Below, piece by piece: positions 36,007 through 56,508 of a stretch of DNA of 64,000 bases (the first letter of the stretch is position 1; each line of letters begins with the position of its first letter). Below the pieces are notes generated by a model. That model searched no databases. It was not told the DNA's origin and was given only the letters and a program-made list of their open reading frames with translations. Origin of the DNA: Candidatus Methanoxibalbensis ujae (GTDB lineage: Archaea > Halobacteriota > Syntropharchaeia > Alkanophagales > Methanospirareceae); contig JAOQIN010000001.1 of the NCBI GenBank assembly GCA_026134085.1, forward strand, positions 21,344 through 85,343, given 5' to 3'. Position numbers and translations under genes: made by a program.

Positions 36007-37371
36007 TCAGGTCATGATGTGCAATGCAGCGAGTATGCAGAAGACACCGAACATGTCGGTGAGGCTGGTGACAAGCGGTATCGTGTCGTTGTCGGGGTCC
36101 AAACCGGCTTTGAATGAGAGAGCGGCGATGTAATAGGTTGCGATATTTATGAATGATACGCATAACAGTCCCGCGATGACAGTGATCATGATCATCTCTC
36201 CGAGAGAGCCGCTTTCAATGCATGCGAACAGCATTGATAGCCACGAGAGCGCGCCTACCAGGACGAAGAAGGAAGACAGCCCATATATCAAAGTGAAATC
36301 AGCAATGCTGCGCCTATCGGGAAGAAATCCAGGCTTTATCATGCCCACGTGCAGCATTGACGATATGCGTGCGCTCAGTATGCCGCCGAGCGCACCGCTC
36401 ACACCGAGAAAGGGAGGAATAACTGCAAGAACAGAGGGGTTTGAGATGAGATACTCCAATCTTGATTCAAGAAGTGTTCCCGTAAGCAGGCCTATTATCC
36501 CGCATATAAGTAGCACGGGATAACTTTCTCCAATTATACGACTTATTTCGGTGCGGAGCCCTTTGTATGTGAGTATGAGTGAAAGTGTTACAGAGAGTGC
36601 GGAGATGATCATGGCAATTGTTTCTCTGCTCTCAAGATGCAGTAAGATGTGCGCTGCGAGATATAATGAGGGTATTGTCGTCATATCTCCTGCGGAGGTG
36701 ATGAGCGGTGATGAGAAATTATCTATGTCCAATTTGCGCCGATATGCAAATATTGAGATTGCAACAGTTATTCCGAGAAGGAAAATTCCAGATAAAATGC
36801 CGCCTAACACAGAAATAAATATGAAAAGCCATACAGAAATGCTCTGAATGCCAAATATACCGGCGAAAATCTTCGCAATAATTCCCAAAATAACGGAGAA
36901 TGAAAGTGTCAATGTGATTGTTGACTTTATGTTGTTGTATAAAACATTATCCCTGAGGGAGGGAGTGAAAATACCGAGATGCATGGAGGTTCCAAGCCGG
37001 GATGCCATCGCTCCATACACATTGCCGCGCATATCGTTGGCAGGAGGGATCAGTATGAGCAATCCCGGCATCAATTTGAGCATTTCGGACATTGAGCTGA
37101 AAACAGTGCCTGCAATAATTCCTGATAGCGTGCAGAGAGAAAGAGATAATGAAGATTGAATGAAAATTTGAGCATTATCATGAAAATATGAACGAATATG
37201 ATGAGTCAGGAGGAGCAGAGCACGCATGCATGCTGATATCTCCGACAATATGCCGGTGATGATGTGTTGGATGCGCTGGAATGCGGTGTGTGTTGTATCT
37301 TCGGAGCAGTGTTCTTCTTTCACATCTCCCTCCTCTTTCATTTTCATCACCACCGAGACACACGACAGCAA
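36007..37371 (-). CDS. Polytopic membrane protein, MgtE-like divalent cation transporter TM domain (tandem), tentative
   Basis: It has about 10 TM helices. The acidic motifs PPANDMRGN and DPDNDTIPLVTSLTDMFG resemble MgtE/SLC41 transmembrane signatures. Confidence 0.35.
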   Translation of the reverse strand: MLSCVSVVMKMKEEGDVKEEHCSEDTTHTAFQRIQHIITGILSEISACMRALLLLTHHIRSYFHDNAQIFIQSSLSLSLCTLSGIIAGTVFSSMSEMLKLMPGLLILIPPANDMRGNVYGAMASRLGTSMHLGIFTPSLRDNVLYNNIKSTITLTLSFSVILGIIAKIFAGIFGIQSISVWLFIFISVLGGILSGIFLLGITVAISIFAYRRKLDIDNFSSPLITSAGDMTTIPSLYLAAHILLHLESRETIAMIISALSVTLSLILTYKGLRTEISRIIGESYPVLLICGIIGLLTGTLLESRLEYLISNPSVLAVIPPFLGVSGALGGILSARISSMLHVGMIKPGFLPDRRSIADFTLIYGLSSFFVLVGALSWLSMLFACIESGSLGEMIMITVIAGLLCVSFINIATYYIAALSFKAGLDPDNDTIPLVTSLTDMFGVFCILAALHIMT

Positions 37372-38230
37372 CGGCTCTCAGCAGCACTGCAGTGATTGTG
37401 CAAAGCGGAGTTTCAGGATCGCCTCCCACATCACTTTCTACCGCGGACATCTCACACTATCTGCTGCTTATTACAACCTCCTCCTGTTCCGATCAGAAGG
37501 ACGGCCCCCATCAACCCCTCTCAGTCGGGAACCTTCAAACCCTCTCCATTTAAAACTTACCACGTAAACCACGTAACGCCTCCTCACAAAGACATGAATC
37601 GCACCAGCCCCTTCTCCACCTTCACACAATCTTCCCCGCACCTAAGCGATGCAGACTTTATACAATGTTTATCAGGTCTTGCACATCTTTAAGAAACAAG
37701 CCAGCTCAGGATCCTGTCTCTCTGAAGCTGCAAATAGGTGACATTTTCCGCCATTGCACAATGGCAACAGCAATTCGAGCTATCACAGGCTTTTTTACTT
37801 TCAAACTTAAGATTGTGAATTGATCCATGTTTGCTATCCCCGCCATGTGAACTCCGCCTCCTTCACCTCTGAGTTGAAGAGCTTTCTGAAAGGGCGACAT
37901 CGCCGAGAGATTCCGCATACGGGGCATACGGAGCAGGGTGGAGCGAACTGCGTGAAGAGGTGAAAGCAAGCTTCCTCTTTCGTTTCAGAGTCAAGACTTG
38001 TCTTTCAGTAATGAACAGCTGATTTGCCAACTTTTAAGAGTAAAGCGATTCTTCCGAGATGAGAGGAGATACATTGCCGCAACTTATGGACACTTTTTTC
38101 CTCTCAATGCATTCAGTAACTCAAGCAATCCATTTCGCCATAGATAGTTGTTCAATTATTTATGTTGCTTGATGCTCGGACACATCGGATATGCCAGAGT
38201 ATATTTATATGAGAAGGAAAATTAAAGAGA

Positions 38231-38581
38231 TTGGAGGGTCAGCGGGCAATGTATGCGTTGACGGGAGATGTGCTTTTTGCGTCATTCCGTAGAGGTCTCA
38301 GGAACGGAAATTGGAAGAAGCTGAAAGCGAGTGAGAGGGCTTTTTTCAAGGCAGCGCTTTTCTATCTGAGGCGAGGCGGAAGGATTGTGAGCGTGTCTGT
38401 TTTGGAGAAGCTCCGTTTGCTCATAGAGGAATTGAATGAGACTAGAAGAATGAGGATATTTAGAAAGGGATTCGAGAAAGCGATTGAAATTTTGAACGCG
38501 TGCGAAAATTTTGCATGGTATCCTTATTTAAAGAAATGGCTAAAAGAACCTGATTATATATTCTGGCTCGGAACAATATAG
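38231..38581 (+). CDS. Hypothetical small basic protein
   Basis: It is 116 aa with no recognisable motif. It lies at the left edge of the island. Confidence 0.3.
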   Translation: MEGQRAMYALTGDVLFASFRRGLRNGNWKKLKASERAFFKAALFYLRRGGRIVSVSVLEKLRLLIEELNETRRMRIFRKGFEKAIEILNACENFAWYPYLKKWLKEPDYIFWLGTI

Positions 38582-38739
38582 AAAATTATACTCACGTGCC
38601 AAAAATCTGAGTAAGAGAGTCCGCTTGATGGGAGGTGAGAAGCATACAAAATGAGTACGCAATGCAGATATTGGGAGGATATACGCAATGCGTATATGAA
38701 CGAGTTATCTGCCATTCCACTCAATGGAGTTGTTAGCCT

Positions 38740-40068
38740 ATGGAACAAATTTTCATAGCTTGGGGACGTAATAAAAACTTGGCCATTAAAGTGGCAGAGA
38801 AATTGAAAGAAAAGGGGTATAATCCCATTGTAGGTGGTGATGAAAAGAACCCGAAGGAGAAAGATTATTACTTAGGCAAAGAAGTTCTTAACCAAATTAA
38901 AAAGGCATCTAAGGCTATTATTCTTGCTCAACAATTAAGACCTAACCTAATGTTCGAATTTGGAATATTATTTGAAAGACTAAACCCTGCATCAATCTTT
39001 ATTTTTTTAATTGGAATTAAAAGAAGTAAATTTTTTACAGAAGCTTCAGACCTCGCTGGCATTAGATGTTTTGAAGTCCCTACTGATAAAAAAGATATAG
39101 AGGAAAGAGCAAACTTTATTGTTGAGAAATTTGTTGAAAATTTAGTTCCTACAATTATTGATCCCGAAAGTTTATTTATCAAGTGGGATGACTGGAAAAA
39201 TAAATTTAATTCTATTAAAAAAGGTGAAGTAAAAGAAAGTCAAGTAGTTTTGAATCAAGTAATTTTACACAGTCTTCAACCAGCCTACTATTTTGGCGAA
39301 ATAAATTTTTTAAAAGATTTTGTGTCTAAATTAGAATTGGATTCATCTTTAAAAACAATCATACAATCAGCATGTGAATATTATATGCTAACTGAATTAC
39401 CAGATTCAAGGCCTGAATTGGGCGAATTGCTCCCGTTAAAAGAGAGTTTGAACAATCCTATATCTATCAAATCGACAATTAAAAACTGGGTAGAACTTGT
39501 AAGAAATGACTTCCTTGGTTTGGTTTATCGTAGAATGTCAGAATCTTTGAAAGAGCAAAAAATAAATTATCTCGAAAAATCTAAGAAAGCTTTTGAGAAT
39601 TCAATAAGATATCTTGAAAAAATCCCAGAAAAGAGAGCATGTTGGCATTTATGGAAAGGATATATTTATAGAAACCTTGGAAGAACATATTGTGAACTCA
39701 ACAATCGTGAGAAAGGTCTGGAATTTCTTAAGGAATCCCAAAAACATAGAAGAGAAGCTTATTCAGCGTTTAAAGCATTAAATGTTTCAGACATTGTCTT
39801 AAATCAGATATTTTTGGAGATCAAAATAGTGGATTTAGATATTATGAGATATAGCACTGAAGAATTAGAATCGAAAAAGCAAAAATTGACAGAAATTATA
39901 GAAGCATTAAAAGTCCAGGGAAAACTCATAGTGAGACCTCTAATTTTATGGAATAAAGTAATAGTTTTGGCTAAAGATGTGGCTGAGAGAGAAGCTAACT
40001 TGCAAGGTATATATAGAGACTTAGAGCAAATTGAAAATCACATAAGAAAGTTGAAAGGAGGCTCTTGA
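38740..40068 (+). CDS. Protein with N-terminal TIR/DUF4062-like flavodoxin-fold domain and C-terminal alpha-helical (TPR-like) domain
   Basis: The N-terminus has the pattern IFIAWG...LA..VAEKLKEKGY.....GG......VL..IKKASKAIILAQ...NLMFEFGILFERL. That is a beta-strand/helix alternation like TIR-family domains (VFISY...IVVLS..SxWCxxEL). The rest is helical with W/Y-rich repeats. It is my assignment from pattern only. Confidence 0.35.
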   Translation: MEQIFIAWGRNKNLAIKVAEKLKEKGYNPIVGGDEKNPKEKDYYLGKEVLNQIKKASKAIILAQQLRPNLMFEFGILFERLNPASIFIFLIGIKRSKFFTEASDLAGIRCFEVPTDKKDIEERANFIVEKFVENLVPTIIDPESLFIKWDDWKNKFNSIKKGEVKESQVVLNQVILHSLQPAYYFGEINFLKDFVSKLELDSSLKTIIQSACEYYMLTELPDSRPELGELLPLKESLNNPISIKSTIKNWVELVRNDFLGLVYRRMSESLKEQKINYLEKSKKAFENSIRYLEKIPEKRACWHLWKGYIYRNLGRTYCELNNREKGLEFLKESQKHRREAYSAFKALNVSDIVLNQIFLEIKIVDLDIMRYSTEELESKKQKLTEIIEALKVQGKLIVRPLILWNKVIVLAKDVAEREANLQGIYRDLEQIENHIRKLKGGS

Positions 40069-40727
40069 TGCCAAAAGTTAAAAGAATTAATTTTAACAAA
40101 CAGAATATCAAAGCTATAGCTTTGGACTTTGATGGAGTAATTGTTGACTCACAGGATTTACACCTCAAAGCTTGGATAGAGACTTTGAAAAAATACCGTA
40201 ATAATTTTAAAGTAAGTTTAAGAGACATTACTGGACTATCAGTGTCAGAATTTATTCAAAGACTGAATATTCCACCAGAAGAGGGAGTAAAAATGGCGGA
40301 ATCGAAAAGAAAATATGTTGTTCAACTTGCCAGAATACATCCTCCACCGTTGTATACAAATGTTATCGAAACTTTACAAATCCTATCTAACTATTATAAA
40401 CTTGCGCTTGTAACCTCATGTGAAACAGACTTAGTCTATTTTGTGTTGGAGTACTATAATTTGAAAAAATTGTTTGAGGTTCTCATCCTTGAGGGTGATT
40501 ATAATAAGCCCAAACCAGATCCGGAACCTTACTTAGAGTGTCTGAAAAGACTGGGACTAGATGCAAAATCTGTGATTGCTATAGAGGACTCTCCAACTGG
40601 AATAAAGTCAGCCAAAAAGGCAGGTCTATTTACAATAGCTATCTCTACTACATTTAATAAAACTCAGCTATTTGAGGCTGATATTATTATAACTAATTTT
40701 AAAGAGTTATTATGTTTAATCCCATAA
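40065..40727 (+). CDS. HAD-superfamily phosphatase (beta-PGM/CbbY-like subfamily IA)
   Basis: It has DFDGVIVDS (motif I, DxD), a T/S in motif II, and K...EDSPTGIKSAKKAG (motifs III/IV). Its start overlaps the upstream gene stop (ATGA). Confidence 0.7.
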   Translation: MMPKVKRINFNKQNIKAIALDFDGVIVDSQDLHLKAWIETLKKYRNNFKVSLRDITGLSVSEFIQRLNIPPEEGVKMAESKRKYVVQLARIHPPPLYTNVIETLQILSNYYKLALVTSCETDLVYFVLEYYNLKKLFEVLILEGDYNKPKPDPEPYLECLKRLGLDAKSVIAIEDSPTGIKSAKKAGLFTIAISTTFNKTQLFEADIIITNFKELLCLIP

Positions 40728-40860
40728 GGCATGGAACATCCCATAAGGCATGGAACGGCAGATAACAGCGGGTATGTGGTTCGCTTACGCTCACCCAAAC
40801 CCTTACTGGCTTCGCATACCCGCAAAACGTTAGGCGAAATGCCTTGATGGGGAGAATCTA
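40728..40860. repeat. Island repeat element copy A (contains internal direct repeat atcccataaggcatggaac x2; ends ...ctggcttcgcatacccgcaaaacGTTAGGCgaaatgcc)
   Basis: It is homologous to copies B-D and ends in a GTTRRRY-type motif about 26 nt before the next ATG. Confidence 0.55.
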
Positions 40861-41490
40861 ATGAAATCTTTTGTAGTTGAGCTGTGGTCGGGGATATTCA
40901 GCATACTGAGATGGATATCGCCTTTTCAGGTGATCCGTACTTTGATTCCAGCCATCAGAGGAAGTCATGGCTTTGTTGATGGATGGGTTTTAGGAAATTT
41001 ACTACTTTCAATTGTACTATTATTGATGTGTTCAGCTCCGAGTCTACATTGGTGGGAGGTTATCGCTATTTGTTATGGGATAATTCGAGTTTTCGAAGTC
41101 TTTATCTACCAAATTAACGTGCTGTTATTTGATGAGTATAGGGCAAGAAAGGCAGGAAAAGCTTATGCTCTACGAGGCTTTCGCCGCCTTGTGATCCTTC
41201 TGCTACATAATTATGCCGAGATTATTTTTTGGTTTGCTCTTTTTTATCGTAACTTAGACTGGGCGTTTGAGACGGGCAAAATCAACCTCAATTCATTTTC
41301 TGTATCTTTAAACTTTAGTTTTGTTACAATGACTACTTTTGGCTATTCTACTATCTTTCCCAAGGAAACTTTAGGGTACATTCTCACTCTTACTCAGTCA
41401 ATAATTGGTTTATTCATGGCGTTGTTGATTCTCGCAAGATTTATATCTTTAATCCCTGCCCCTCAAACCATGGATGAATTTGAGAAATGA
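40861..41490 (+). CDS. Two-TM ion-channel-like protein (K+ channel pore-like TTFGYS filter)
   Basis: The hydrophobic helices flank a pore-helix/filter-like segment VTMTTFGYSTIFP (compare T-[TV]-GYG). Confidence 0.45.
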   Translation: MKSFVVELWSGIFSILRWISPFQVIRTLIPAIRGSHGFVDGWVLGNLLLSIVLLLMCSAPSLHWWEVIAICYGIIRVFEVFIYQINVLLFDEYRARKAGKAYALRGFRRLVILLLHNYAEIIFWFALFYRNLDWAFETGKINLNSFSVSLNFSFVTMTTFGYSTIFPKETLGYILTLTQSIIGLFMALLILARFISLIPAPQTMDEFEK

Positions 41491-41606
41491 TTATTATTTC
41501 GTCTAACAGTATCTGGCTTCGGTGCTTCGCACCTCCGCCCAAATTCCTCGCTCGGAACTTCGGATATGCCCAGAACGTTAAGTGAAATTCGGCTCATGCG
41601 TTAAGA
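41491..41606. repeat. Island repeat element copy B (starts cgTCTAACag...; ...ctggcttcggtgcttcgc...ccgcccaaattcc...aacttcggatatgcccagaacGTTAAGTgaaattcgg)
   Basis: It is homologous to A, C and D. It has a 5' RYYYAAC-like motif and a 3' GTTRRRY-like motif. Confidence 0.55.
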
Positions 41607-41646
41607 ATAAAATATAACTATAATAATAATTAAATAATGATATAGT

Positions 41647-41871
41647 ATGCTCGTAACATTTGAGATATACAATGATGGTGAATACTGGTGTGCAAGAGGT
41701 ATAGGAGTGGATATATTCACACAAGGAAAAACACTTGATGAGTTGATGGAGAATATAAAAGAGGCTGTTGAAGTACATTATGGAGAATTATTGGAAAAAG
41801 GTGAAGATATAAGGATATTATCAATATCAGAAATAGAGGTGCATTCAACTGCCAAAGTTACCAGTCGTTAG
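41647..41871 (+). CDS. hicB: HicB-like antitoxin (UPF0150 family N-terminal domain)
   Basis: The segment FEIYNDGEYWCARGIGVDIFTQGKTLDELMENIKEAVEVHY matches the HicB/UPF0150 pattern (Y.a..pdlpG..s.G.T.eEa..n..EAi). Confidence 0.5.
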   Translation: MLVTFEIYNDGEYWCARGIGVDIFTQGKTLDELMENIKEAVEVHYGELLEKGEDIRILSISEIEVHSTAKVTSR

Positions 41872-41893
41872 TGGGGATAAACTAATCAAACTA

Positions 41894-42097
41894 TTGACCA
41901 GATTGGGATACGAAATAGTAAGACAGAAAGGGAGCCACGTGCGTTTAAGAAAGAAAACAGAAATAGGTGAGCATAATATAACTGTGCCCAAACACAAAGA
42001 AATTGCAAAAGGTACACTAAATGATATTCTATCAAAGGTGTCTCTATGGAACAACATATCCAAAGAGGAATTAGTCAAAATGTTATCAAAAATATGA
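41894..42097 (+). CDS. hicA: HicA-like mRNA interferase toxin (YcfA family)
   Basis: It has GSHVRLRK...HNITVPKHKEIAKGTLNDIL (the HicA GSH..L and TVP.H.EI..GTL motifs). The frame is open upstream (LPKLPVVSGDKLIKLL), so the true start may be a non-ATG codon near 41850 that overlaps the hicB end. Confidence 0.55.
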   Translation: MTRLGYEIVRQKGSHVRLRKKTEIGEHNITVPKHKEIAKGTLNDILSKVSLWNNISKEELVKMLSKI

Positions 42098-42099
42098 GA

Positions 42100-42270
42100 G
42101 GTGGATATATGACGCATGAGCTCTCGTAACCCTTCGGTTTCACCCCTCTCGGGGCCACTTAACAGGAGGATATGTGGCTTTTACAGAGCCTAAATTTGCT
42201 CTTGCAAGCAAACTTCACATATCCCCGGTTGTCCGAAATCCCGAACGCCGCTCTTAAGAGGTGAAATAAC
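42100..42270. repeat. Island repeat element copy C (contains aacaggaggatatgtggctt and ccaaatttgc...caaacttcacatatc)
   Basis: It is about 90 nt and homologous to copy D. Confidence 0.55.
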
Positions 42271-42501
42271 ATGAATGATAAAATTGCACCAAATATAATA
42301 GATAATAGCCCAAATAGAGAGTTAATCAGAGTATTGAAAGATCAATTAAAAAAATCAAAAGAGGCTAAATTTGCCATAGGATATTTCTTCCTGAGTGGAT
42401 TTTCTCTTGTTAAAGATGACTTTCCAGAAAATTATGAAAAGATACCATTTCTTAAAATTGTGATGGGAAATGAAACTACATATCCAACAAAAGAGGGGTG
42501 A
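42271..42501 (+). pseudogene. Fragment resembling the N-terminus of PLD-like/helicase-associated proteins
   Basis: It is 76 aa and ends abruptly. The motif AKFAIGYFFLSGFSLV resembles the I.I.sgYf..SG PLD-like N-terminal motif. Tentative. Confidence 0.25.
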
Positions 42502-43208
42502 GATGCTTGATTTTAAGGAAATAGAATCTGATTTGTTTACTGAGGTGGAGGAAGTTGAGAAGTTTATCTTTAACAATATTTCCCTGCGAGCATGGATTGA
42601 GGAAGGAAGGATTGAAAGACAGGAGAGATGGGAATATCCACCAAAGGCATTGAGAGAGGCTATAGTAAATGCAATTGTCCACAGGGATTATCGTATTCCC
42701 TCTAAGATACAGATAAGAATATTTGATGATAGAATCGAATTATAGAATCGAATTCTGGAATCTAGGAAGATTACCAGAAGGTTGGACTGTTGAAACCTTA
42801 AAAGAAGAGCATACATCGGAACCATTTAATCCACTGATTGCGAGAATTTTCTTCGGGGTAGGATATGTGGAAGAGGTTGGAACTGGAACGAATAAAATGA
42901 TAAGGTGGTGTAAAGAATGGGGTCTTCCAGAACCTGAATTTAAAATAAAATCAAACAACATAGTGGTTATATTTAGAAAATCAAAACTTACTGAGGAATA
43001 TCTAAACAATCTTGATCTTACAGAAAGAGAAAAGGAAATAATTCAATTTCTCAAAGAGAAAAAGAGGATCACCAGTGCTGATGTCCAGAAAAAGTATGAA
43101 GTAAGTAGAGATACAGCAAATAGATGGTTGAATAAGCTGCTTGGATTAAACCTAATAGAAAGAAAAGGGAGAGGGAAAGCAGTGTATTACATTTTAAAGG
43201 AAAAATGA
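42470..43208 (+). pseudogene. AlbA_2/HATPase_c_4-family regulator (RecG-C-terminal-like ATP-binding protein) disrupted by a 13-bp tandem duplication frameshift; N-terminally truncated
   Basis: Two overlapping ORFs (42470..42745 and 42723..43208) carry PPKALREAIVNAIVHRDY and ...IEFWNLGRLPEGWTVETLKEEHTSEPFNPLIARIFF...GTGTNKM...GLPEPEF. The DNA at about 42730-42755 reads atagaatcgaatt-atagaatcgaatt. Removing one copy restores the single frame RIEFWNLG. Confidence 0.55.
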
Positions 43209-43438
43209 TGCGTCAGATTTGCGTCAGATAACTACGACCGCTGGGCTGAGCTTTACTGGAAGAAGCAAATTGAAGGAAATTTAACAGAAGGAGAGCAAAA
43301 GGAACTTGAAAAACTGGAAAAAGAGAATATGAAAACCATAGAAGAAGTTTATAAATTACTCATAGAAGATAAAAAAATACAAAAACAAATAGAAAAAATA
43401 AAATCCCATGAATGGGTTAAAGTAATAGAGGGGGAAGG

Positions 43439-43759
43439 ATGAACGAAAAGGTAAAGAGGATATTAACAGAGGTCAAAAAGTATTTGATTAAGAACTATGG
43501 AGACAGGATAAGGCAGGTTATCCTTTATGGCTCTTATGCACGGGGAGATTACAATAAAGATTCCGATATTGATATATTGATTGTGGTGAGCGATGATATA
43601 AACCCTATTGAGGTTGAAGAATCCTTAAACGATTTACTTTTTGAAATCCTTCTTAATGAAAATGAACTTTGCTCAGTCAGGGCGATACCAGAAAAATTGT
43701 TTAAGGAATACAATTCTCCATTCCTTTTGAATGTAAAAGAAGAAGGTGTGATGATATGA
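43439..43759 (+). CDS. Minimal nucleotidyltransferase (MNT) antitoxin
   Basis: It has the GSYARGDYNKDSDIDILIV NTase motif and is 106 aa. Its stop overlaps the next ATG (ATGA). Confidence 0.7.
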   Translation: MNEKVKRILTEVKKYLIKNYGDRIRQVILYGSYARGDYNKDSDIDILIVVSDDINPIEVEESLNDLLFEILLNENELCSVRAIPEKLFKEYNSPFLLNVKEEGVMI

Positions 43760-44137
43760 AAAAAGAAATAAAAGACCTTCTTGAGAAAGCTGATAGATAC
43801 TTAAGAAGTGCAGAACTATTATTAAAAGATGGCGACTTCGATTCCTGTGCATCAAGATGTTACTATGCCATGTTTTACTCAGCAGAAGCTATATTGCTTA
43901 CAAACGATTTGAAGGCATCTTCTCATGAGTAATAAGTTTATTCGGCATTTTATCAAAACAGGGAAATTGGATAAAGAATTGGGGAAGGCATTGAGAAGAG
44001 CATATGACTTAAGACAGAGGGGAGATTATGAAACCGGTTTTATGGTAACAGAGGAAGAGGCGAGAAAACTCCTGGAAATAGCAAAGAACTTTGTAAAAGT
44101 AGTCTTAGATTATTTGAGTGAGCGAACTGACTCATAG
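43756..44137 (+). pseudogene. HEPN toxin gene split by a +1 frameshift (cognate of the MNT)
   Basis: The N-terminal half 43756..43932 reads MKKEIKDLLEKADRYLRSAELLLKDGDFDSCASRCYYAMFYSAEAILLTNDLKASSHE*. The C-terminal half 43925..44137 in another frame reads ...FIKTGKLDKELGKALRRAYDLRQRGDYE. Together they reconstruct a canonical HEPN with its R-x4-6-Y motif. Confidence 0.55.
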
Positions 44138-44139
44138 TA

Positions 44140-44310
44140 ATAGAGTAGAGGGAGGAATATGAGCGGGGTTCGGGACTCTCCGCTTCCTTCGCTCGCTTCG
44201 GTGCTTTTGCACTCGGACAACAGGAGGATATGTGGCTTCGCCTTGCTCTGCCCAAATTTGCCTACGGCAAACTTCACATATCAAACGTTAGGCGACATGC
44301 AGAAATAGAA
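44140..44310. repeat. Island repeat element copy D (aacaggaggatatgtggcttcgcc...cccaaatttgcc...caaacttcacatatcaaacGTTAGGCgacatgc)
   Basis: It is homologous to A, B and C and ends in GTTAGGC. Confidence 0.55.
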
Positions 44311-44349: not shown

Positions 44350-44480
44350 AGATAAAAAATTGTACTTTATGGCACATATGCGAGAGGAGATGCCACAAAA
44401 GACTCAGACATAGATTTACTCATCGTTCCTGAAGGAGAAGTGATCTCAGGAGAAGAGACTGACACCGGGAGAAGAGATTG
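44350..44480 (+). pseudogene. Degenerate nucleotidyltransferase (MNT) remnant
   Basis: One frame reads ...IVLYGTYARGDATKDSDIDLLIVPEGEV... with no proper start and a stop. It is the remnant of a further cassette. Confidence 0.4.
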
Positions 44481-44671
44481 ACATGATGATGGACATAGTC
44501 ACAGAGATGAACCTATATGGTGTGTTACTGTTTATCCGAATCCAGCAAAGGAGAAAAGGATGTTATGAAATTGTTATGAAATATTGCAGTATAGCTCAAT
44601 AAATTCCCGAACGGATGCCTGAAGCAGGATTATTTGCACGGGCACTTTGCCTTTTGGGAAAGGAAATATGT

Positions 44672-47600
44672 TTATTCTCTCAAAATTTCCTCATATTTCT
44701 TCTTCCAAGCCTCCACTTCCTCTTTCGTCACGACATCTATGGAACCGCCCTGAAATTCGCCTTCAACGACTCCTATTTTTTCCTCCATCCACCCCTCAAC
44801 CTCCAGAAGCGCCGCCCTCAAGCCATCAATAACATCTTCAGATGCTTTCCACAGCCCTCTTTCATATGCCTCAATCAACCTTCTGCCGATCTCTTCAAGA
44901 GCCCAGGGATTTTCACCCTCAAAAAACTTTCGCATATTCTTATCAAGAACGAAAGTGCGGGCGATTTCATCAAAGATCCAATCACTCACTTCCTCTGTTG
45001 ATGCTTCCCATCCGTAAACTCTGCCTATTCTTTTTGATATTTCGCTTGCTCCGCTGTATCCGTGCTTTTTCATACCCTCTATCCATTTGGGATTCAGCAG
45101 TTTTGCGCGCACCACTCTCCTTATCTCCGAAGCAAGTGTTCTGACCTCAACATTATCAGAGCGCGTGTCTCCGTAGAGGGCGATCACATCTTTTCCCGAA
45201 ATCTCGCGAGCAGCAGCTGTGAGACCACCATGTGTGCTGAAGTAGCAGCAGCATCCGAGAATGTCGTATTCGTCTGTTGTTGTCTTGTTGAATGTTACAG
45301 AAACCGTTTTTAGCTGCGATAAGAGAGATTTGTGAGCTTTTATACCGAATTTCCTGTCACCGTAAGCGTAGCCGTTCCAGTATATGAATATCTCTGTAAG
45401 GTCCTTCTGCGTGTTCCATGCAGATGCATATACAGCGAGATTCACACCGCTGCCATATGTTCCTGGTTTTGATGAGAATATGCGTGCATGAGTGTCTTCA
45501 CATTTGTTTTCGTTCTCAATTGCGTGTTTTCTCAGGAAATTAAGCGAAGTTGGTTCGTCAAGAGATGAAACCTCCCTGAATGCGCGGTCGAGGAGCTCAA
45601 TGCAGTTGTAGAAGCAGTCTCTTATGATTGCGCTCACACGCACAGTCACATCTATGCGCGGTCTTCCAAGAGTTTCAGCGGGAATTATCCTGAAATCAAC
45701 CACACGACCGTCAGCATCCCAGACAGGTTCAACACCTATGAGATACATTATCTGAGCGAGCTGCTCTCCATCAGCCCACATTATATCTGATGCCATCCAG
45801 TACATGGCCACATTCTCCGGAAATTCCCCCTTTTCCTCCTCATATCTGCGCAACATCGCATCAGCAAGCTTCTTGCCGACTTCCCATGCGGCCTTTGTGG
45901 GTATTTTGAACGGGTCAAGCGAGTAGAAATTGCGACCTGTCGGCAGGATATCTGTTTTTCCTTTTGTTATAAGGCCTGAGGCACCCGGCTCTATGTATCC
46001 CGCATCAAATCCGTGCATAAGAGCACCCATTTCGTCTGTCGCATCCAATCTCGCTGCTATCTCCCTCACAGCATCTCTCAGCTCGGAGAACTCCGCTTCC
46101 ATGCTCTTTGCCGCGATTTTGAGAGCCTCATCCTCATGCTCCTCGCAGTCCTCGCAGGAGCGCAACGCAGCGGTGTCACCATCATCGCTCAAAAATCCGT
46201 GCAGGATTTTTCTTGCTGTGCTGTCAATGAACGCGTTGCTGTCACGATGCTCCTCTGACGCCTGCGCATTCATTTTTGCATTTGCCTTCACATTTACACG
46301 CTGAAGAAGTTTGCGCACGGCTTCTCTGAATTTCTGTCGCAGTACGGCGTATATGAAGTTCTCTTTCTGCGCTCCTTCAGGAGTCTCGCCGAACACATGC
46401 ATGCCTTCAGGAATCTGCGAGTCGTATATCTGAGACAAAGCCTCATGAACAGCATTCAGAAAATCATTGAAATCCTCATATACACGGATTTCATCGTATA
46501 TGCGGGTATTGCGGATCATATCCATGATCTGATTTCGCAGCGCATGAGCTCTCTCGGTGTTCTTTTGATTTTGAATTCTGCGATATTCATCTATTAAATC
46601 ATCAAGCGCTTTGAGATCCCCATACAAGCCGCTTTCAGTGAGAACAGCCTGAAGATGGTCTATGAGTGTTGCATAGCTGCGTCTCTTTGCTATTGTGCCT
46701 TCGGGAGGGTTGTCCGCGTTGTAGATGTAGAGATGAGGGACATCACCTATTGCGATATCGGGAAAACAGCACTCTGATAGGCCCACAGATTTTCCGGGAA
46801 GAAATTCAAGATTTCCATGCGTGCCAACATGCACAATCACATCAGCGCCGAATATGCGATCAATGTAATGATAGGTGGCGAGATACTGATGCGTCGGTGG
46901 TGTTTCCGGGTCATGAAGGATTTTGCACACATGCCCATCGCATCTCGCACCGGCACATCCTCTCTTTGGCTGCACGCACACGATTGCATTTCCATATCTG
47001 ATGCCTGTTATCACTATTTTTCCGTCATACACCATGGCATTACCCGGCGGCCTTCCCCAGACATCGCATACTTTCTTCCGCACCTCTTCATCCAAACTGT
47101 TGAACCAGCGCTCATATTCCTCACCGCTCAGATACAGTGCGCCTCCTTTTGCAACAATCTCATCCACAGTTGTCCATCTGAACTCTGATATTGCTTTTCT
47201 CCGCATTATCTCATCAATCAACGCCTTTCCATCCTCAGGCGGTTCTTCAATCGCATAACCCTCATCACGCAATCTTTTGAGAATGCGAGATACGCTCTCA
47301 AGCGCGTCCAGATGAGATGCGCTTCCCACAGTCGCCTCAACAGATGCACATGGCTTGTTATGCAGTATGAACGCAACCTTTCGCTCTGATTTGGGCTTCA
47401 TGCGAAGCGCTATCCACTTATTCACTCGCCGCACAACCTTCCTCACACGCTCCTCCAGAGGCACATGCTCAGTTGCTGCTGTCGCCGACTGTGCGGACGA
47501 TGAAGCTTTCACACCTGCGACGAGAGGCTCTATAAGACCTTCAAACTCCGGCATAGCGACACTCCATCCGACCTCGGCAGCGCTGAGACCGTGAGAATCG

Positions 47601-48445
47601 CCACGCCAATCACTCTCAGTTTTGTGATAAAGGATCAGCGGATGAAACACGGGCACATCAACCTTCTTCAGAGTGCTCACTCCATTTTCGGATGCAGCAA
47701 AAACAGGCTGTAAATTCACGATCGCATCAACATGGCCCATGAAAAACTCTCTTATGACATCCACACCCGTCTTCGCACCAGCATCTCTGTCTCCCATTCC
47801 CATGCTGAACACAGGAATCACACCGGTTCCGCTGCGCTCAAACTCGCGTATCAGTGCATCAACCACAGAAAGATCTCCGTTCAACCAGTATGTGCGATAG
47901 AAAAGTATGCCAACCATCGGACGACGATCATGACTCCCGAAATGCTGAAGATCATACCACTTCAGATAAGAAGCAACATCATCAAACACGCACTCCGCAT
48001 CTGGATGATAAATGCCCTGCCACGGATATTCCTTTGGAGGCTCGTACGGGACTTCAGCGCCTGTAAGCGTGTGCATTATGAACTTCAGCATGTTGACAAC
48101 ATTCTCATAGCCGCCGTATGTGAAATACGCGTTCGCCCTCAAAACAACTTCAGGCGGAACATTTGAGAGAGACATGTCCAAATTGTATCCAAGCGATATC
48201 ACAGGCTTATCTTTCCTCGGAAAATCACCCATCCATTCATGCTCACTCATCCATTCATGCGAGGGATGCAATATGATTATGTCGGCATCCTCAAGCGATT
48301 TCAGACATTCATCACGCCTCCCGGCATCCTTCAGATCATCATGCGTCCATAAAAGCAGATCAATCCCCAGATCCTCACATGCCCTCCTGAGAAGTCCCAC
48401 ATCACTGCTCCACACAACAGATCCTATCTTAACCATGACGCACAC
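44672..48445 (-). CDS. cobN: CobN/Mg-chelatase-family large subunit (cobaltochelatase CobN-like)
   Basis: It is 1257 aa with CobN-family length and motifs throughout. The identification rests on overall pattern. Confidence 0.7.
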   Translation of the reverse strand: MCVMVKIGSVVWSSDVGLLRRACEDLGIDLLLWTHDDLKDAGRRDECLKSLEDADIIILHPSHEWMSEHEWMGDFPRKDKPVISLGYNLDMSLSNVPPEVVLRANAYFTYGGYENVVNMLKFIMHTLTGAEVPYEPPKEYPWQGIYHPDAECVFDDVASYLKWYDLQHFGSHDRRPMVGILFYRTYWLNGDLSVVDALIREFERSGTGVIPVFSMGMGDRDAGAKTGVDVIREFFMGHVDAIVNLQPVFAASENGVSTLKKVDVPVFHPLILYHKTESDWRGDSHGLSAAEVGWSVAMPEFEGLIEPLVAGVKASSSAQSATAATEHVPLEERVRKVVRRVNKWIALRMKPKSERKVAFILHNKPCASVEATVGSASHLDALESVSRILKRLRDEGYAIEEPPEDGKALIDEIMRRKAISEFRWTTVDEIVAKGGALYLSGEEYERWFNSLDEEVRKKVCDVWGRPPGNAMVYDGKIVITGIRYGNAIVCVQPKRGCAGARCDGHVCKILHDPETPPTHQYLATYHYIDRIFGADVIVHVGTHGNLEFLPGKSVGLSECCFPDIAIGDVPHLYIYNADNPPEGTIAKRRSYATLIDHLQAVLTESGLYGDLKALDDLIDEYRRIQNQKNTERAHALRNQIMDMIRNTRIYDEIRVYEDFNDFLNAVHEALSQIYDSQIPEGMHVFGETPEGAQKENFIYAVLRQKFREAVRKLLQRVNVKANAKMNAQASEEHRDSNAFIDSTARKILHGFLSDDGDTAALRSCEDCEEHEDEALKIAAKSMEAEFSELRDAVREIAARLDATDEMGALMHGFDAGYIEPGASGLITKGKTDILPTGRNFYSLDPFKIPTKAAWEVGKKLADAMLRRYEEEKGEFPENVAMYWMASDIMWADGEQLAQIMYLIGVEPVWDADGRVVDFRIIPAETLGRPRIDVTVRVSAIIRDCFYNCIELLDRAFREVSSLDEPTSLNFLRKHAIENENKCEDTHARIFSSKPGTYGSGVNLAVYASAWNTQKDLTEIFIYWNGYAYGDRKFGIKAHKSLLSQLKTVSVTFNKTTTDEYDILGCCCYFSTHGGLTAAAREISGKDVIALYGDTRSDNVEVRTLASEIRRVVRAKLLNPKWIEGMKKHGYSGASEISKRIGRVYGWEASTEEVSDWIFDEIARTFVLDKNMRKFFEGENPWALEEIGRRLIEAYERGLWKASEDVIDGLRAALLEVEGWMEEKIGVVEGEFQGGSIDVVTKEEVEAWKKKYEEILRE

Positions 48446-56419: not shown

Positions 56420-56508
56420 TGCGCCGGCCGGGACTCGAACCCGGGTTAGAGGCTTTTTGCCCCGCAGAGGATGGCAAGCCTCTGTGATAACCACTACACT
56501 ACCGGCGC
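56420..56508 (-). tRNA. tRNA gene with anticodon-loop intron, probably tRNA-Gly(GCC)
   Basis: The reverse complement reads GCGCCGG-TA-GTG-AGTGGTTAT-CAC-A-GAGGC-TTGCCA-[intron ~17 nt TCCTCTGCGGGGCAAAA]-A-GCCTC-TAAC-CCGGG-TTCGAGT-CCCGG-CCGGCGC-A. The acceptor and T arms are perfect. Its 88-nt length implies an intron at the canonical 37/38 position. Confidence 0.6.

Follow-up and report, generated by a model that had tools for sequence, protein, structure and literature searches.

A coupled TIR-TPR and HAD phosphatase gene pair on an integron-type cassette of an ANME-1 archaeon: a candidate two-component conflict module

Why should an archaeon couple the gene of a TIR-like protein to that of a phosphatase and carry the two on one mobile cassette? 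The question is raised by a locus at positions 38740 to 40727 of a 64,000-nucleotide stretch of contig JAOQIN010000001.1 (assembly GCA_026134085.1), which we analysed as a whole and call the window. A preliminary description had proposed that the locus encodes a TIR/DUF4062-like protein with a long helical domain and a HAD phosphatase, and that the two form a new kind of defence system. The observation is real, and most of the structural inference was right. The locus is a variant, with other protein families, of a kind of system already described as Metis and Vesta. By analogy with these systems, we tentatively prefer, with slightly more doubt than conviction, to read the pair as a TPR-gated NADase and a HAD that removes a basal phosphorylated trigger; together they would form a conflict module of the antiviral or abortive-infection type on one integron-type cassette.

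The TIR-TPR gene (38740..40068, + strand) is an open reading frame with an ATG start and encodes 442 residues (NCBI MCW7077566.1, 'nucleotide-binding protein'). The HAD-IA (C1-capped) phosphatase gene (40068..40727, + strand; 40065 is an alternative start) encodes 219 residues (MCW7077567.1). Coordinates and strand of both reading frames were verified. The TIR-TPR protein has its exact match in Ca. Methanoxibalbensis ujae, and this archaeon of the anaerobic methanotrophic lineage ANME-1c is the host (PMC9894754). The two genes are translationally coupled. Their junction (GGAGGctcTTGATGcc; 40057..40070, + strand) contains a Shine-Dalgarno-like GGAGG at 40057-40061, 6 nt 5' of the HAD ATG at 40068. 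The stop codon TGA (40066-40068) and the start codon ATG (40068-40070) have a single base in common; the overlap, earlier given as ATGA, is in fact TGATG.

The domain assignments of both proteins are far above chance. In a Pfam scan of the 442-residue protein (E ≤ 0.1), the sole match was CAP12-PCTIR_TIR (PF10137), which scored 33.7 bits, the curated cut-off being 24.7 (E 3.9e-8; residues 3-110, profile positions 1-114 of 119). Four family members (P0086, P0033, P0006 and P0109) likewise exceed this cut-off. The TIR half of the earlier assignment is borne out by this score. The DUF4062 half is not, since PF13271 gave no match in the same scan, and we dropped that identity. The predicted TIR-like N-glycosidase domain covers residues 1-140 (38740..39159, + strand). 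AlphaFold gives the secondary structure of this head as E3-8, H12-24, E28-31, H45-55, E58-63 and H68-80, and the motifs quoted in the preliminary description exist and coincide with the predicted beta-alpha-beta elements. The fold is TIR/flavodoxin-like, with the catalytic Glu on a conserved N-x3-E-x-G segment; the head is almost equally similar to MilB and NDT as to TIR. The codons of the catalytic motif RPNLMFEFG (38938..38964, + strand; residues 67-75) include those of N69, E73 and G75. All of 108 full-length family members have E73 and G75 (100%), and 99% have N69; W8, G32-G33, D104 and G107 are, like N69, kept in 94-99%.

The long helical C-terminal domain that had been noticed in the translation (residues 141-442; 39160..40065, + strand) folds as a TPR superhelix akin to peptide- and ligand-binding TPRs, and we presume it to be a sensor or regulatory module. 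Its polar residues R337 and E360 are conserved in the same 108 proteins. Variation among cassette copies that are 94-96% identical is unevenly spread: 16 of the 36 variable residues fall in a hypervariable patch at residues 265-299 (39532..39636, + strand; simulation p < 5e-5), and a single one falls in head residues 1-100. The ratio of nonsynonymous to synonymous substitution rates (dN/dS) over the whole TIR-TPR gene is 0.38-0.72 between these copies. An immune sensor surface would look like this, with an invariant enzyme head and a hypervariable patch in the repeat domain.

How widespread is the protein? A word-indexed homologue search with the 442-residue sequence showed only 4 relatives, so an exhaustive profile search was required; a first scan of reference genomes had found none. 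The profile search over 1.84 billion representatives yielded 297 family representatives at E ≤ 1e-3 and 67 at E ≤ 1e-30, most of them 430-480 residues long and alignable end to end. An alignment of 82 family sequences was too diverse for patterns, and an 18-sequence alignment was used instead; searching with it turned up no more than 3 loci in genomes and 10 in metagenomes. Family member P0086 had no match in the plasmid collection, and a PDB sequence search with the family profile returned nothing significant. The domains recombine. CHAT protease domains precede the C-terminal module in P0108 and P0123, in P0068, P0115 and L006 it is fused to GT2 glycosyltransferases, and the TIR-like member P0087 has a PRTase instead. 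One distant relative adjoins integrase, AAA_23, Vsr and methylase genes. Another (L005, 2904-4190; Ruminococcaceae metagenome-assembled genome, MAG) lies between genes for agmatine deiminase and N-carbamoylputrescine amidase, with stops and starts overlapping or abutting. The distant member fused to GT2 in L006 (5959-8280; Acidobacteriaceae MAG) adjoins a UDP-GlcNAc 2-epimerase gene, and a further one (L011, 3-788) lies directly 3' of a GT2 gene.

The second protein is the bona fide HAD phosphatase it had been taken for. It matches HAD_2 (PF13419) with 115.4 bits (E 4e-33), its nearest solved structures are the BT2127 pyrophosphatase, the TM_1254 sugar phosphatase and beta-PGM, and motifs I-IV are intact (DFDGVIVDS, LVTS, KPKPDPEPY and IEDS) and conserved in all paired HADs. 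Between cassette copies the dN/dS of the HAD gene is 0-0.2, that is, it is under strong purifying selection. The best family match is the beta-PGM/YqaB subfamily. Since the protein scores under every NCBIfam equivalog cut-off, no specific substrate can be assigned to it. We looked for residues that separate TIR-paired from unpaired HADs and found none.

Are the two genes a unit? Pairing occurs in five divergent lineages whose TIR-TPR proteins are only 21-48% identical, which bears out the expectation that the pair would be seen in other genomes. Thus an overlapping gene starting ...KAIAFDFDGVIVDSQDLHMKAW comes after that of P0003, a protein with 45-48% identity to that of the window. The genes of the nearest HAD relatives whose context is readable, P0154 (53%), P0155 (49%) and P0157 (47%), each lie directly downstream of one for a PF10137 protein of 433-486 residues; these partners comprise P0006, with 35% identity to the TIR-TPR protein of the window, and a sister subfamily to which the family hidden Markov model aligns over positions ~70-413. 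All HAD relatives with at least 49% identity and a readable context are paired. At 43-47% identity, three of the four that were checked (P0156, P0159 and P0161; 43-46%) are unpaired and lie in sugar-metabolism operons with GlcNAc 2-epimerase, GH43 or SSF transporter genes; the fourth is the paired P0157. On one metagenome contig (P0186), a 20-nt deletion at the junction has created an in-frame TIR-TPR/HAD fusion of 657 residues. In a bootstrapped neighbour-joining tree the paired HADs are not monophyletic: P0157 groups with the unpaired clade (100% bootstrap) and the other paired HADs form a weak group. Either one HAD lineage was recruited twice, or the pairing is ancient and some HADs later escaped from it.

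Nine loci with relatives of the TIR-TPR protein (L001, L004, L005, L006, L011, L013, L014, L016 and L026) have no HAD in the available flanks; P0005, a close relative of the paired P0006, is encoded at one of them. It follows that the HAD is an accessory and not an obligate partner. We sought a conserved alternative partner in the HAD-less loci, and their neighbours were heterogeneous. The proposal that the two genes act as a unit therefore stands as regards coupling, fusion, carriage on one mobile cassette in two contexts and recurrence in five lineages, and fails as regards co-conservation throughout the family.

These observations can be joined in a mechanism. The PF10137 head would hydrolyse NAD+, or less likely another nucleotide, by means of the invariant Glu73. 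The TPR superhelix would restrain the head and perceive a trigger. Translational coupling would keep the HAD at a constant ratio to the effector, and the HAD would act as an accessory guard which, by analogy with the HAD MisB of Metis, dephosphorylates a basal phosphorylated small-molecule activator; the effector would then fire only once infection lifts the trigger above the capacity of the phosphatase. Such a guard would account for the combination of tight coupling with a recurrent but dispensable partner. It would also explain why a phosphatase without specialisation is under strong purifying selection and why polar residues of the sensor are conserved. The accessory status of the HAD matches that of MisB and of the Vesta phosphatase VstB, both dispensable for defence. 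We infer the defence role itself from the homology of the head, the analogous architectures, the pattern of variation and the genomic context, the latter being HicBA and MNT/HEPN neighbours in the window and PF10137 and DUF4209 neighbours in the other array described below.

Several results weigh against this mechanism. For the first gene, PADLOC returned only a non-significant match (PDC-S35, E 0.013) and PHROGs none, and no relatives of the TIR-TPR family were found in viral contigs. The genomic contexts of several family members are not suggestive of defence: their genes lie between those of polyamine metabolism, or beside a GT2 gene or fused to one. Since no more than 35 nt precede the first ATG in the cassette, its expression depends on the array. 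For a direct comparison with MisB we recovered a complete Metis operon from E. coli; no specific homology between MisB and the window HAD emerged (BLASTP E 0.51, hhalign probability 1.7%), and we dropped orthology in favour of a relationship at the superfamily level only. Finally, the HAD is barely separable from its unpaired sugar-phosphatase relatives, and its substrate could therefore be a reaction product instead of a trigger.

The last point leads to the main rival, which we consider rather unlikely: the HAD would act on the chemistry of the effector and not on its trigger, in a depletion with two steps. In one version the head would cleave NAD+, nicotinamide mononucleotide (NMN) or another nucleoside monophosphate, and the HAD would dephosphorylate the product or a salvage intermediate (ribose-5-phosphate, NMN or nicotinic acid mononucleotide, compounds of the phosphoribosyl pyrophosphate type, or 2'-phospho-ADP-ribose). 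Depletion would then be irreversible, and reconstitution of NAD+ by host or virus would be blocked. In a second version the HAD would supply the head by turning NADP+ or nucleotides into its substrate. The carbohydrate operons of the nearest unpaired HAD relatives point in this direction, as do the sugar-phosphate and pyrophosphate phosphatases among the best structural and family matches; the absence of residues peculiar to the paired clade fits an unchanged specificity for sugar or nucleotide phosphates. Glycosidases of the MilB type release ribose-5-phosphate, and the head is nearly as MilB/NDT-like as TIR-like. In addition, the Thoeris effector ThsI has been proposed to manipulate the nucleotide pool (10.64898/2025.12.03.692087), viral pathways that reconstitute NAD+ are known as counter-defences, and a stoichiometric fusion such as that of P0186 would suit substrate channelling. 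However, a phosphatase with such a function is absent from the defence systems described so far, whereas there is direct experimental precedent for a guard. On ADP-ribose, the canonical TIR product, a HAD would find no phosphomonoester. The HAD is missing beside most family members, which excludes it as an essential catalytic step.

The genomic contexts of the distant relatives raise another alternative. The pair could serve metabolism or the cell envelope, the TIR-TPR protein as a regulated N-glycosidase of nucleotides or nucleotide sugars and the HAD as its partner in the pathway; its presence in arrays would then show only how promiscuous integron cassettes are in general. The GT2 fusions (P0068, P0115, L006), the GT2 adjacency (L011), the UDP-GlcNAc 2-epimerase gene (L006) and the polyamine genes (L005) would be explained, the sister clade of the HAD is metabolic, and defence databases gave no match. 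Against this, the characterised PF10137 proteins named by Pfam (Cap12 and Pycsar TIR) are all defence effectors, and the analogous ThsI and BcTpr defend against phage. A hypervariable TPR patch beside an invariant head and the replacement of the N-terminus by CHAT in some proteins also speak against a metabolic enzyme. The same holds for the TA/Abi-type (toxin-antitoxin and abortive-infection) cassettes that accompany the module in both arrays, for the relative in an island of integrase and restriction-modification genes, and for the rare, patchy and horizontally mobile distribution of the clade. We consider such a role less likely and, on balance, improbable.

How does the pair travel? BLAST showed similarity to four metagenome contigs with another array (L003, L009, L010 and L012) that extends from exactly 38704 to ~40840. 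The shared block of ~2.14 kb contains just the two genes, and its flanks are unrelated. It is 96% identical in the window (context A) and in the other array (context B), and both junctions lie at GTT. Direct repeats flanking the block had been considered as its ends; they are superseded by the following reading. The 5' end of the block (GTTATCTGCCATTCCA; 38704..38719, + strand) is complementary to the beginning of an attC-like site behind the HAD gene (inverted repeat I8, 38704-38719 and 40751-40766; 16 nt, 94% complementary). The 5' ends of the cassettes in context B are likewise complementary to their own sites. This complementarity is expected of cassettes that circularise and recombine at G|TT. 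With the crossover positions of the upstream site and of its own site as bounds, the mobile cassette with both genes occupies 38705..40831 (+ strand; ~2.13 kb).

The attC-like site of this cassette (40751..40842, + strand) comprises R'' (AGATAAC, 40760-66), L'' (GCGGGTATG, 40768-76), L' (CATACCCGC, 40814-22) and R' (GTTAGGC, 40829-35), the latter in agreement with the GTTRRRY core. Throughout the array, a site of ~95 nt lies behind every gene or pair of genes and has the pattern RYYYAAC-AG-L''-GGCTT...CCCAAA...CTTC-L'-AAC-GTTRRRY. We aligned eight sites and found 15 consensus pairs, 8 of which have compensatory double changes. The sites are recognised by a covariance model that we built from these eight, not by the standard attC model. 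With this model the cassette's own site scores 76.9 bits. Three further sites, at 41492..41590 (66.9 bits), 42148..42240 (69.4 bits) and 44206..44300 (78.6 bits; all + strand, cmsearch), delimit cassettes with an ion-channel gene, with HicBA, and with a degraded HATPase_c_4/HTH gene plus MNT/HEPN. The four window sites thus score 67-79 bits, all on the + strand, and nothing else in the 64 kb exceeds 22 bits. The model also detects sites in L007 on which it was not trained. A perfect 19-nt tandem duplication (ATCCCATAAGGCATGGAAC, twice; 40719-40756) spans the HAD stop codon (40725-40727) and reaches into the attC-like site; the other array (L010, from 5466 onward) has a single copy of the unit.

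The low-GC island between MgtE (36007-37371) and CobN (44672-48445) is real. It extends from 38219 to 44304, has a GC content of 30-39% (30-37% in the cassette itself) against ~47% in the window, and contains HicB/HicA, MNT/HEPN and an ion-channel-like gene. It had been described as an island of TA/Abi cassettes; genes of these types are present, and the island is more precisely an integron-type cassette array that resembles a cluster of attC sites lacking integrases (CALIN). A CALIN is defined by at least two sites less than 4 kb apart (PMC9668308), a definition that covers the window array with its spacings of 741, 656 and 2058 nt. We found no integron integrase beside the array, where the flanking genes are MgtE and CobN, among 20 other open reading frames of the window or in the ~850-nt gap at 37372-38219. 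On the CobN side, the window, L007 and L008 have a common flank, but the cassettes in their arrays are not the same set. Identity reaches 94-95% in the island against only 80% in the flank: L007 4570-5213 and window 44639-45274 agree at 80%, the cassettes at 95%. This gap suggests recent cassette exchange between related but distinct ANME-1 lineages.

A coupled two-gene cassette among HicBA and MNT/HEPN cassettes could itself be a toxin-antitoxin locus: a constitutively active NADase toxin, the TIR-TPR protein, would be countered by the HAD as an antitoxin that works by catalysis or by binding, and the pair would mainly stabilise the array. NAD-degrading toxins with cognate immunity proteins exist. 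Toxin-antitoxin cassettes are known to stabilise arrays, as in the chromosomal integrons of bacteria (references cited in PMC9668308). However, an obligate antitoxin would be expected everywhere, yet nine loci including that of P0005 have no HAD, and a phosphatase is unable to reverse the glycohydrolysis of NAD+. The catalytic residues of the HAD are kept under strong purifying selection, which argues for an enzymatic role and not for mere binding. The large TPR domain with its variable patch implies regulated instead of constitutive activity. Like a metabolic role, that of a toxin-antitoxin pair is less likely than a guarded effector, and we regard it as very improbable.

The neighbouring cassettes deserve some comment. 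The next one encodes a K+-channel-like membrane protein of 209 residues (Ion_trans_2; 40861-41490). Type X Thoeris and type II Metis use ion-channel and small transmembrane proteins as effectors; we rejected this gene as a part of the present system, as it sits on a separate cassette that is absent from context B. A protein of a Ca. Desulfofervidus auxilii MAG (MDL1957521.1) belongs to the same 90%-identity cluster as the channel. Ca. Desulfofervidus is the bacterial syntrophic partner of thermophilic ANME-1, and the match reflects either cross-domain transfer of the cassette or a binning error. Some cassettes are decaying: a HATPase_c_4 plus winged-helix gene is broken into three open reading frames (42271-43208), and the HEPN partner of the MNT gene (43439-43759) is in two pieces, the N-terminal half at 43756-43932 and the C-terminal half at 43925-44137. 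Beyond the last attC-like site, 67 nt (44360-44426) are 72% identical to a part of the MNT nucleotidyltransferase gene (43518-43584) and are probably the remnant of another MNT cassette.

In context B, another PF10137 TIR-like protein of 326 residues (L010, 447-1424) is encoded on a separate cassette two cassettes upstream, which is absent from the window's array. It is followed by the gene of a DUF4209/DUF7380 protein of 593 residues (L010, 1566-3344), and an IS110-family transposase gene (L010, 5624-6658) lies directly after the attC-like site of the TIR-TPR/HAD cassette. Elsewhere in the window, an 89-nt tRNA gene (56420-56508, - strand; Rfam 57.8 bits) received the anticodon call 'tRNA-???' from ARAGORN, consistent with an archaeal intron.

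What would follow if the TPR-gated, HAD-guarded NADase is correct? The principle of a self-sensing NAD+-destroying effector with a noise-suppressing phosphatase would extend to a third, unrelated pair of families and to Archaea, which would speak for a convergent design solution and against a curiosity of one family. In its boldest form, which we find doubtful, the locus would be a third and independently assembled 'guarded NADase' module, borne on an integron-type element of thermophilic ANME-1, in which the TPR domain senses a phosphorylated metabolite derived from infection, as in Metis, and turns on the TIR-type NADase, while the HAD, recruited from among sugar or nucleotide phosphatases, sets the threshold; neighbouring cassettes may have been exchanged across domains with Ca. 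Desulfofervidus. The substrate of the HAD would then identify the molecule sensed by the TPR domain, possibly a new danger signal in ANME-1 archaea. The biology of ANME-1 viruses and their hosts is hard to study experimentally, and the small, easily purified HAD would be a practical handle on it. Integron-type arrays in a methanotrophic archaeon would furthermore stock defence-type modules as mobile units, in parallel to bacterial integrons. If this mechanism is wrong, the locus is still a clean two-gene cassette with attC-like sites in an archaeal order that is not highlighted in the survey of archaeal integrons. The archaeal host and the integron-type cassette with two genes are of interest in addition.

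Finally, we compared the locus with known systems. The carrier resembles integrons and CALINs (PMC9668308) in its co-oriented open reading frames, each followed by an imperfect palindrome of ~95 nt with AAC/GTT boxes and covarying stems, in the recurrence of one cassette in more than one array, the breakpoints lying at GTT, and in its four sites less than 4 kb apart. It differs in that no integron integrase was found beside the array or among the window reading frames that were tested, and in that the cassette holds two genes. Integron cassettes that encode phage defence have been reported (10.1101/2024.07.02.601719), and the main text of the archaeal integron survey does not name the ANME-1 order (Ghaly et al. 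2022, PMC9668308). As regards the proteins, the PF10137 effectors of the cyclic-oligonucleotide-based antiphage signalling system (CBASS) and of Pycsar (Cap12 TIR-STING, TIR-SAVED and PycTIR) sense by STING, SAVED or cyclic-nucleotide-binding domains and not by a TPR superhelix. Neither the window cassette nor the array contains a CD-NTase or pyrimidine cyclase; the partner is a HAD.

The architecture of the first protein, in contrast, has close analogues. The 'core Tpr' architecture reportedly goes back to Burroughs and Aravind 2020. BcTpr (415 residues) combines a MilB-like N-terminal glycosidase with C-terminal TPRs and is an NADase that makes an isomer of cyclic ADP-ribose (cADPR); its NADase activity and its defence function both require N82 and E86 (10.1101/2023.05.26.542521), residues whose spacing equals that of N69 and E73 in the window protein. 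ThsI, the effector of type VIII Thoeris, is described as 'CMP hydrolase + TPR' and is activated by canonical cADPR; manipulation of the nucleotide pool is its proposed role (10.64898/2025.12.03.692087). ThsI, BcTpr and the window protein share an N-terminal N-glycosidase domain of the MilB/TIR superfamily, N-x3-E-x-G, a C-terminal TPR domain and a length of ~400-450 residues. Partners in 'core Tpr' operons vary and are often absent (29 of 78 stand alone); those listed are TIR, YspA, patatin, LSDAT and calcineurin, a HAD not being among them (10.1101/2023.05.26.542521). A Thoeris survey likewise has no mention of a phosphatase.

Membership in the ThsI family was tried and rejected on the basis of sequence. 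Our ThsI-type comparison protein adjoins a ThsB that is 56% identical to the published Yersinia type VIII ThsB. Against the 82-sequence family profile it reached an hhalign probability of 2.6%, and domain sub-profiles found nothing. It carries the motif SNANAIYELG, and N-x3-E-x-G is all that it has in common with the window family. It matches Pfam TPR-S (PF20308) and MAP3K_TRAF_bd, which no member of the window family does, and has no match to PF10137, whereas the window family matches it. Nor does the window cassette contain a TIR gene of the ThsB type, the source of the cADPR signal. ThsI and BcTpr thus have the same architecture as the window protein and probably the same chemistry, and belong to a different family. 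A side observation concerns a Klebsiella resistance plasmid (NZ_CP142977.1; L027, 2776-5972), on which two Thoeris-like pairs lie side by side and adjoin sul1/qacEdelta1 and a Tn3 transposase gene: a TPR-S 'TRAFs-binding' protein with a ThsB TIR, type VIII-like, and a TIR with a DUF4231 protein, plausibly type VII-like.

The claim that no comparable layout had been described therefore needs to be divided. Metis, Vesta and ThsI/BcTpr are functional analogues; the exact combination of a PF10137 TIR, TPRs and a HAD was not found in the literature and databases that we searched, including PADLOC. Vesta consists of VstA, a NIR/DUF4062 NADase, and VstB, an alkaline phosphatase that is dispensable for defence (10.64898/2026.09.04.749371). 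It thus has a small NADase with a putative ligand-binding C-terminal domain that is strongly co-encoded with a dispensable phosphatase. It differs from the window pair in its NADase family, DUF4062/PF13271, which the window protein does not match, and in having an alkaline phosphatase instead of a HAD.

Metis comes closest in layout. MisA joins a PUA-like sensor to a calcineurin-like NAD+ diphosphatase, which converts NAD+ to NMN and AMP, and MisB is a PF13419 HAD. MisB is dispensable for defence, dephosphorylates the basal N6-methyl-dAMP (m6dAMP) trigger and so prevents autoimmunity, and also pairs with a different, membrane effector (Osterman et al., 10.1101/2025.11.05.686725). Unlike MisA, the window protein is a TIR-type glycosidase with TPRs and has no match to PF00149 or PUA. 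MisB has 279 residues and the motif DLDNTL, whereas the window HAD has DFDGVIVDS; the host is here an archaeon and the carrier an integron-type cassette. The two systems nevertheless agree in being two-gene operons in which one protein combines a sensor with an NAD+-destroying domain, actual in MisA and predicted in the window protein, and a PF13419 HAD follows immediately downstream. They also agree in the looseness of the partnership: MisB is dispensable and works beside alternative effectors, and the HAD of the window family pairs with its TIR-TPR partner recurrently but not obligately.

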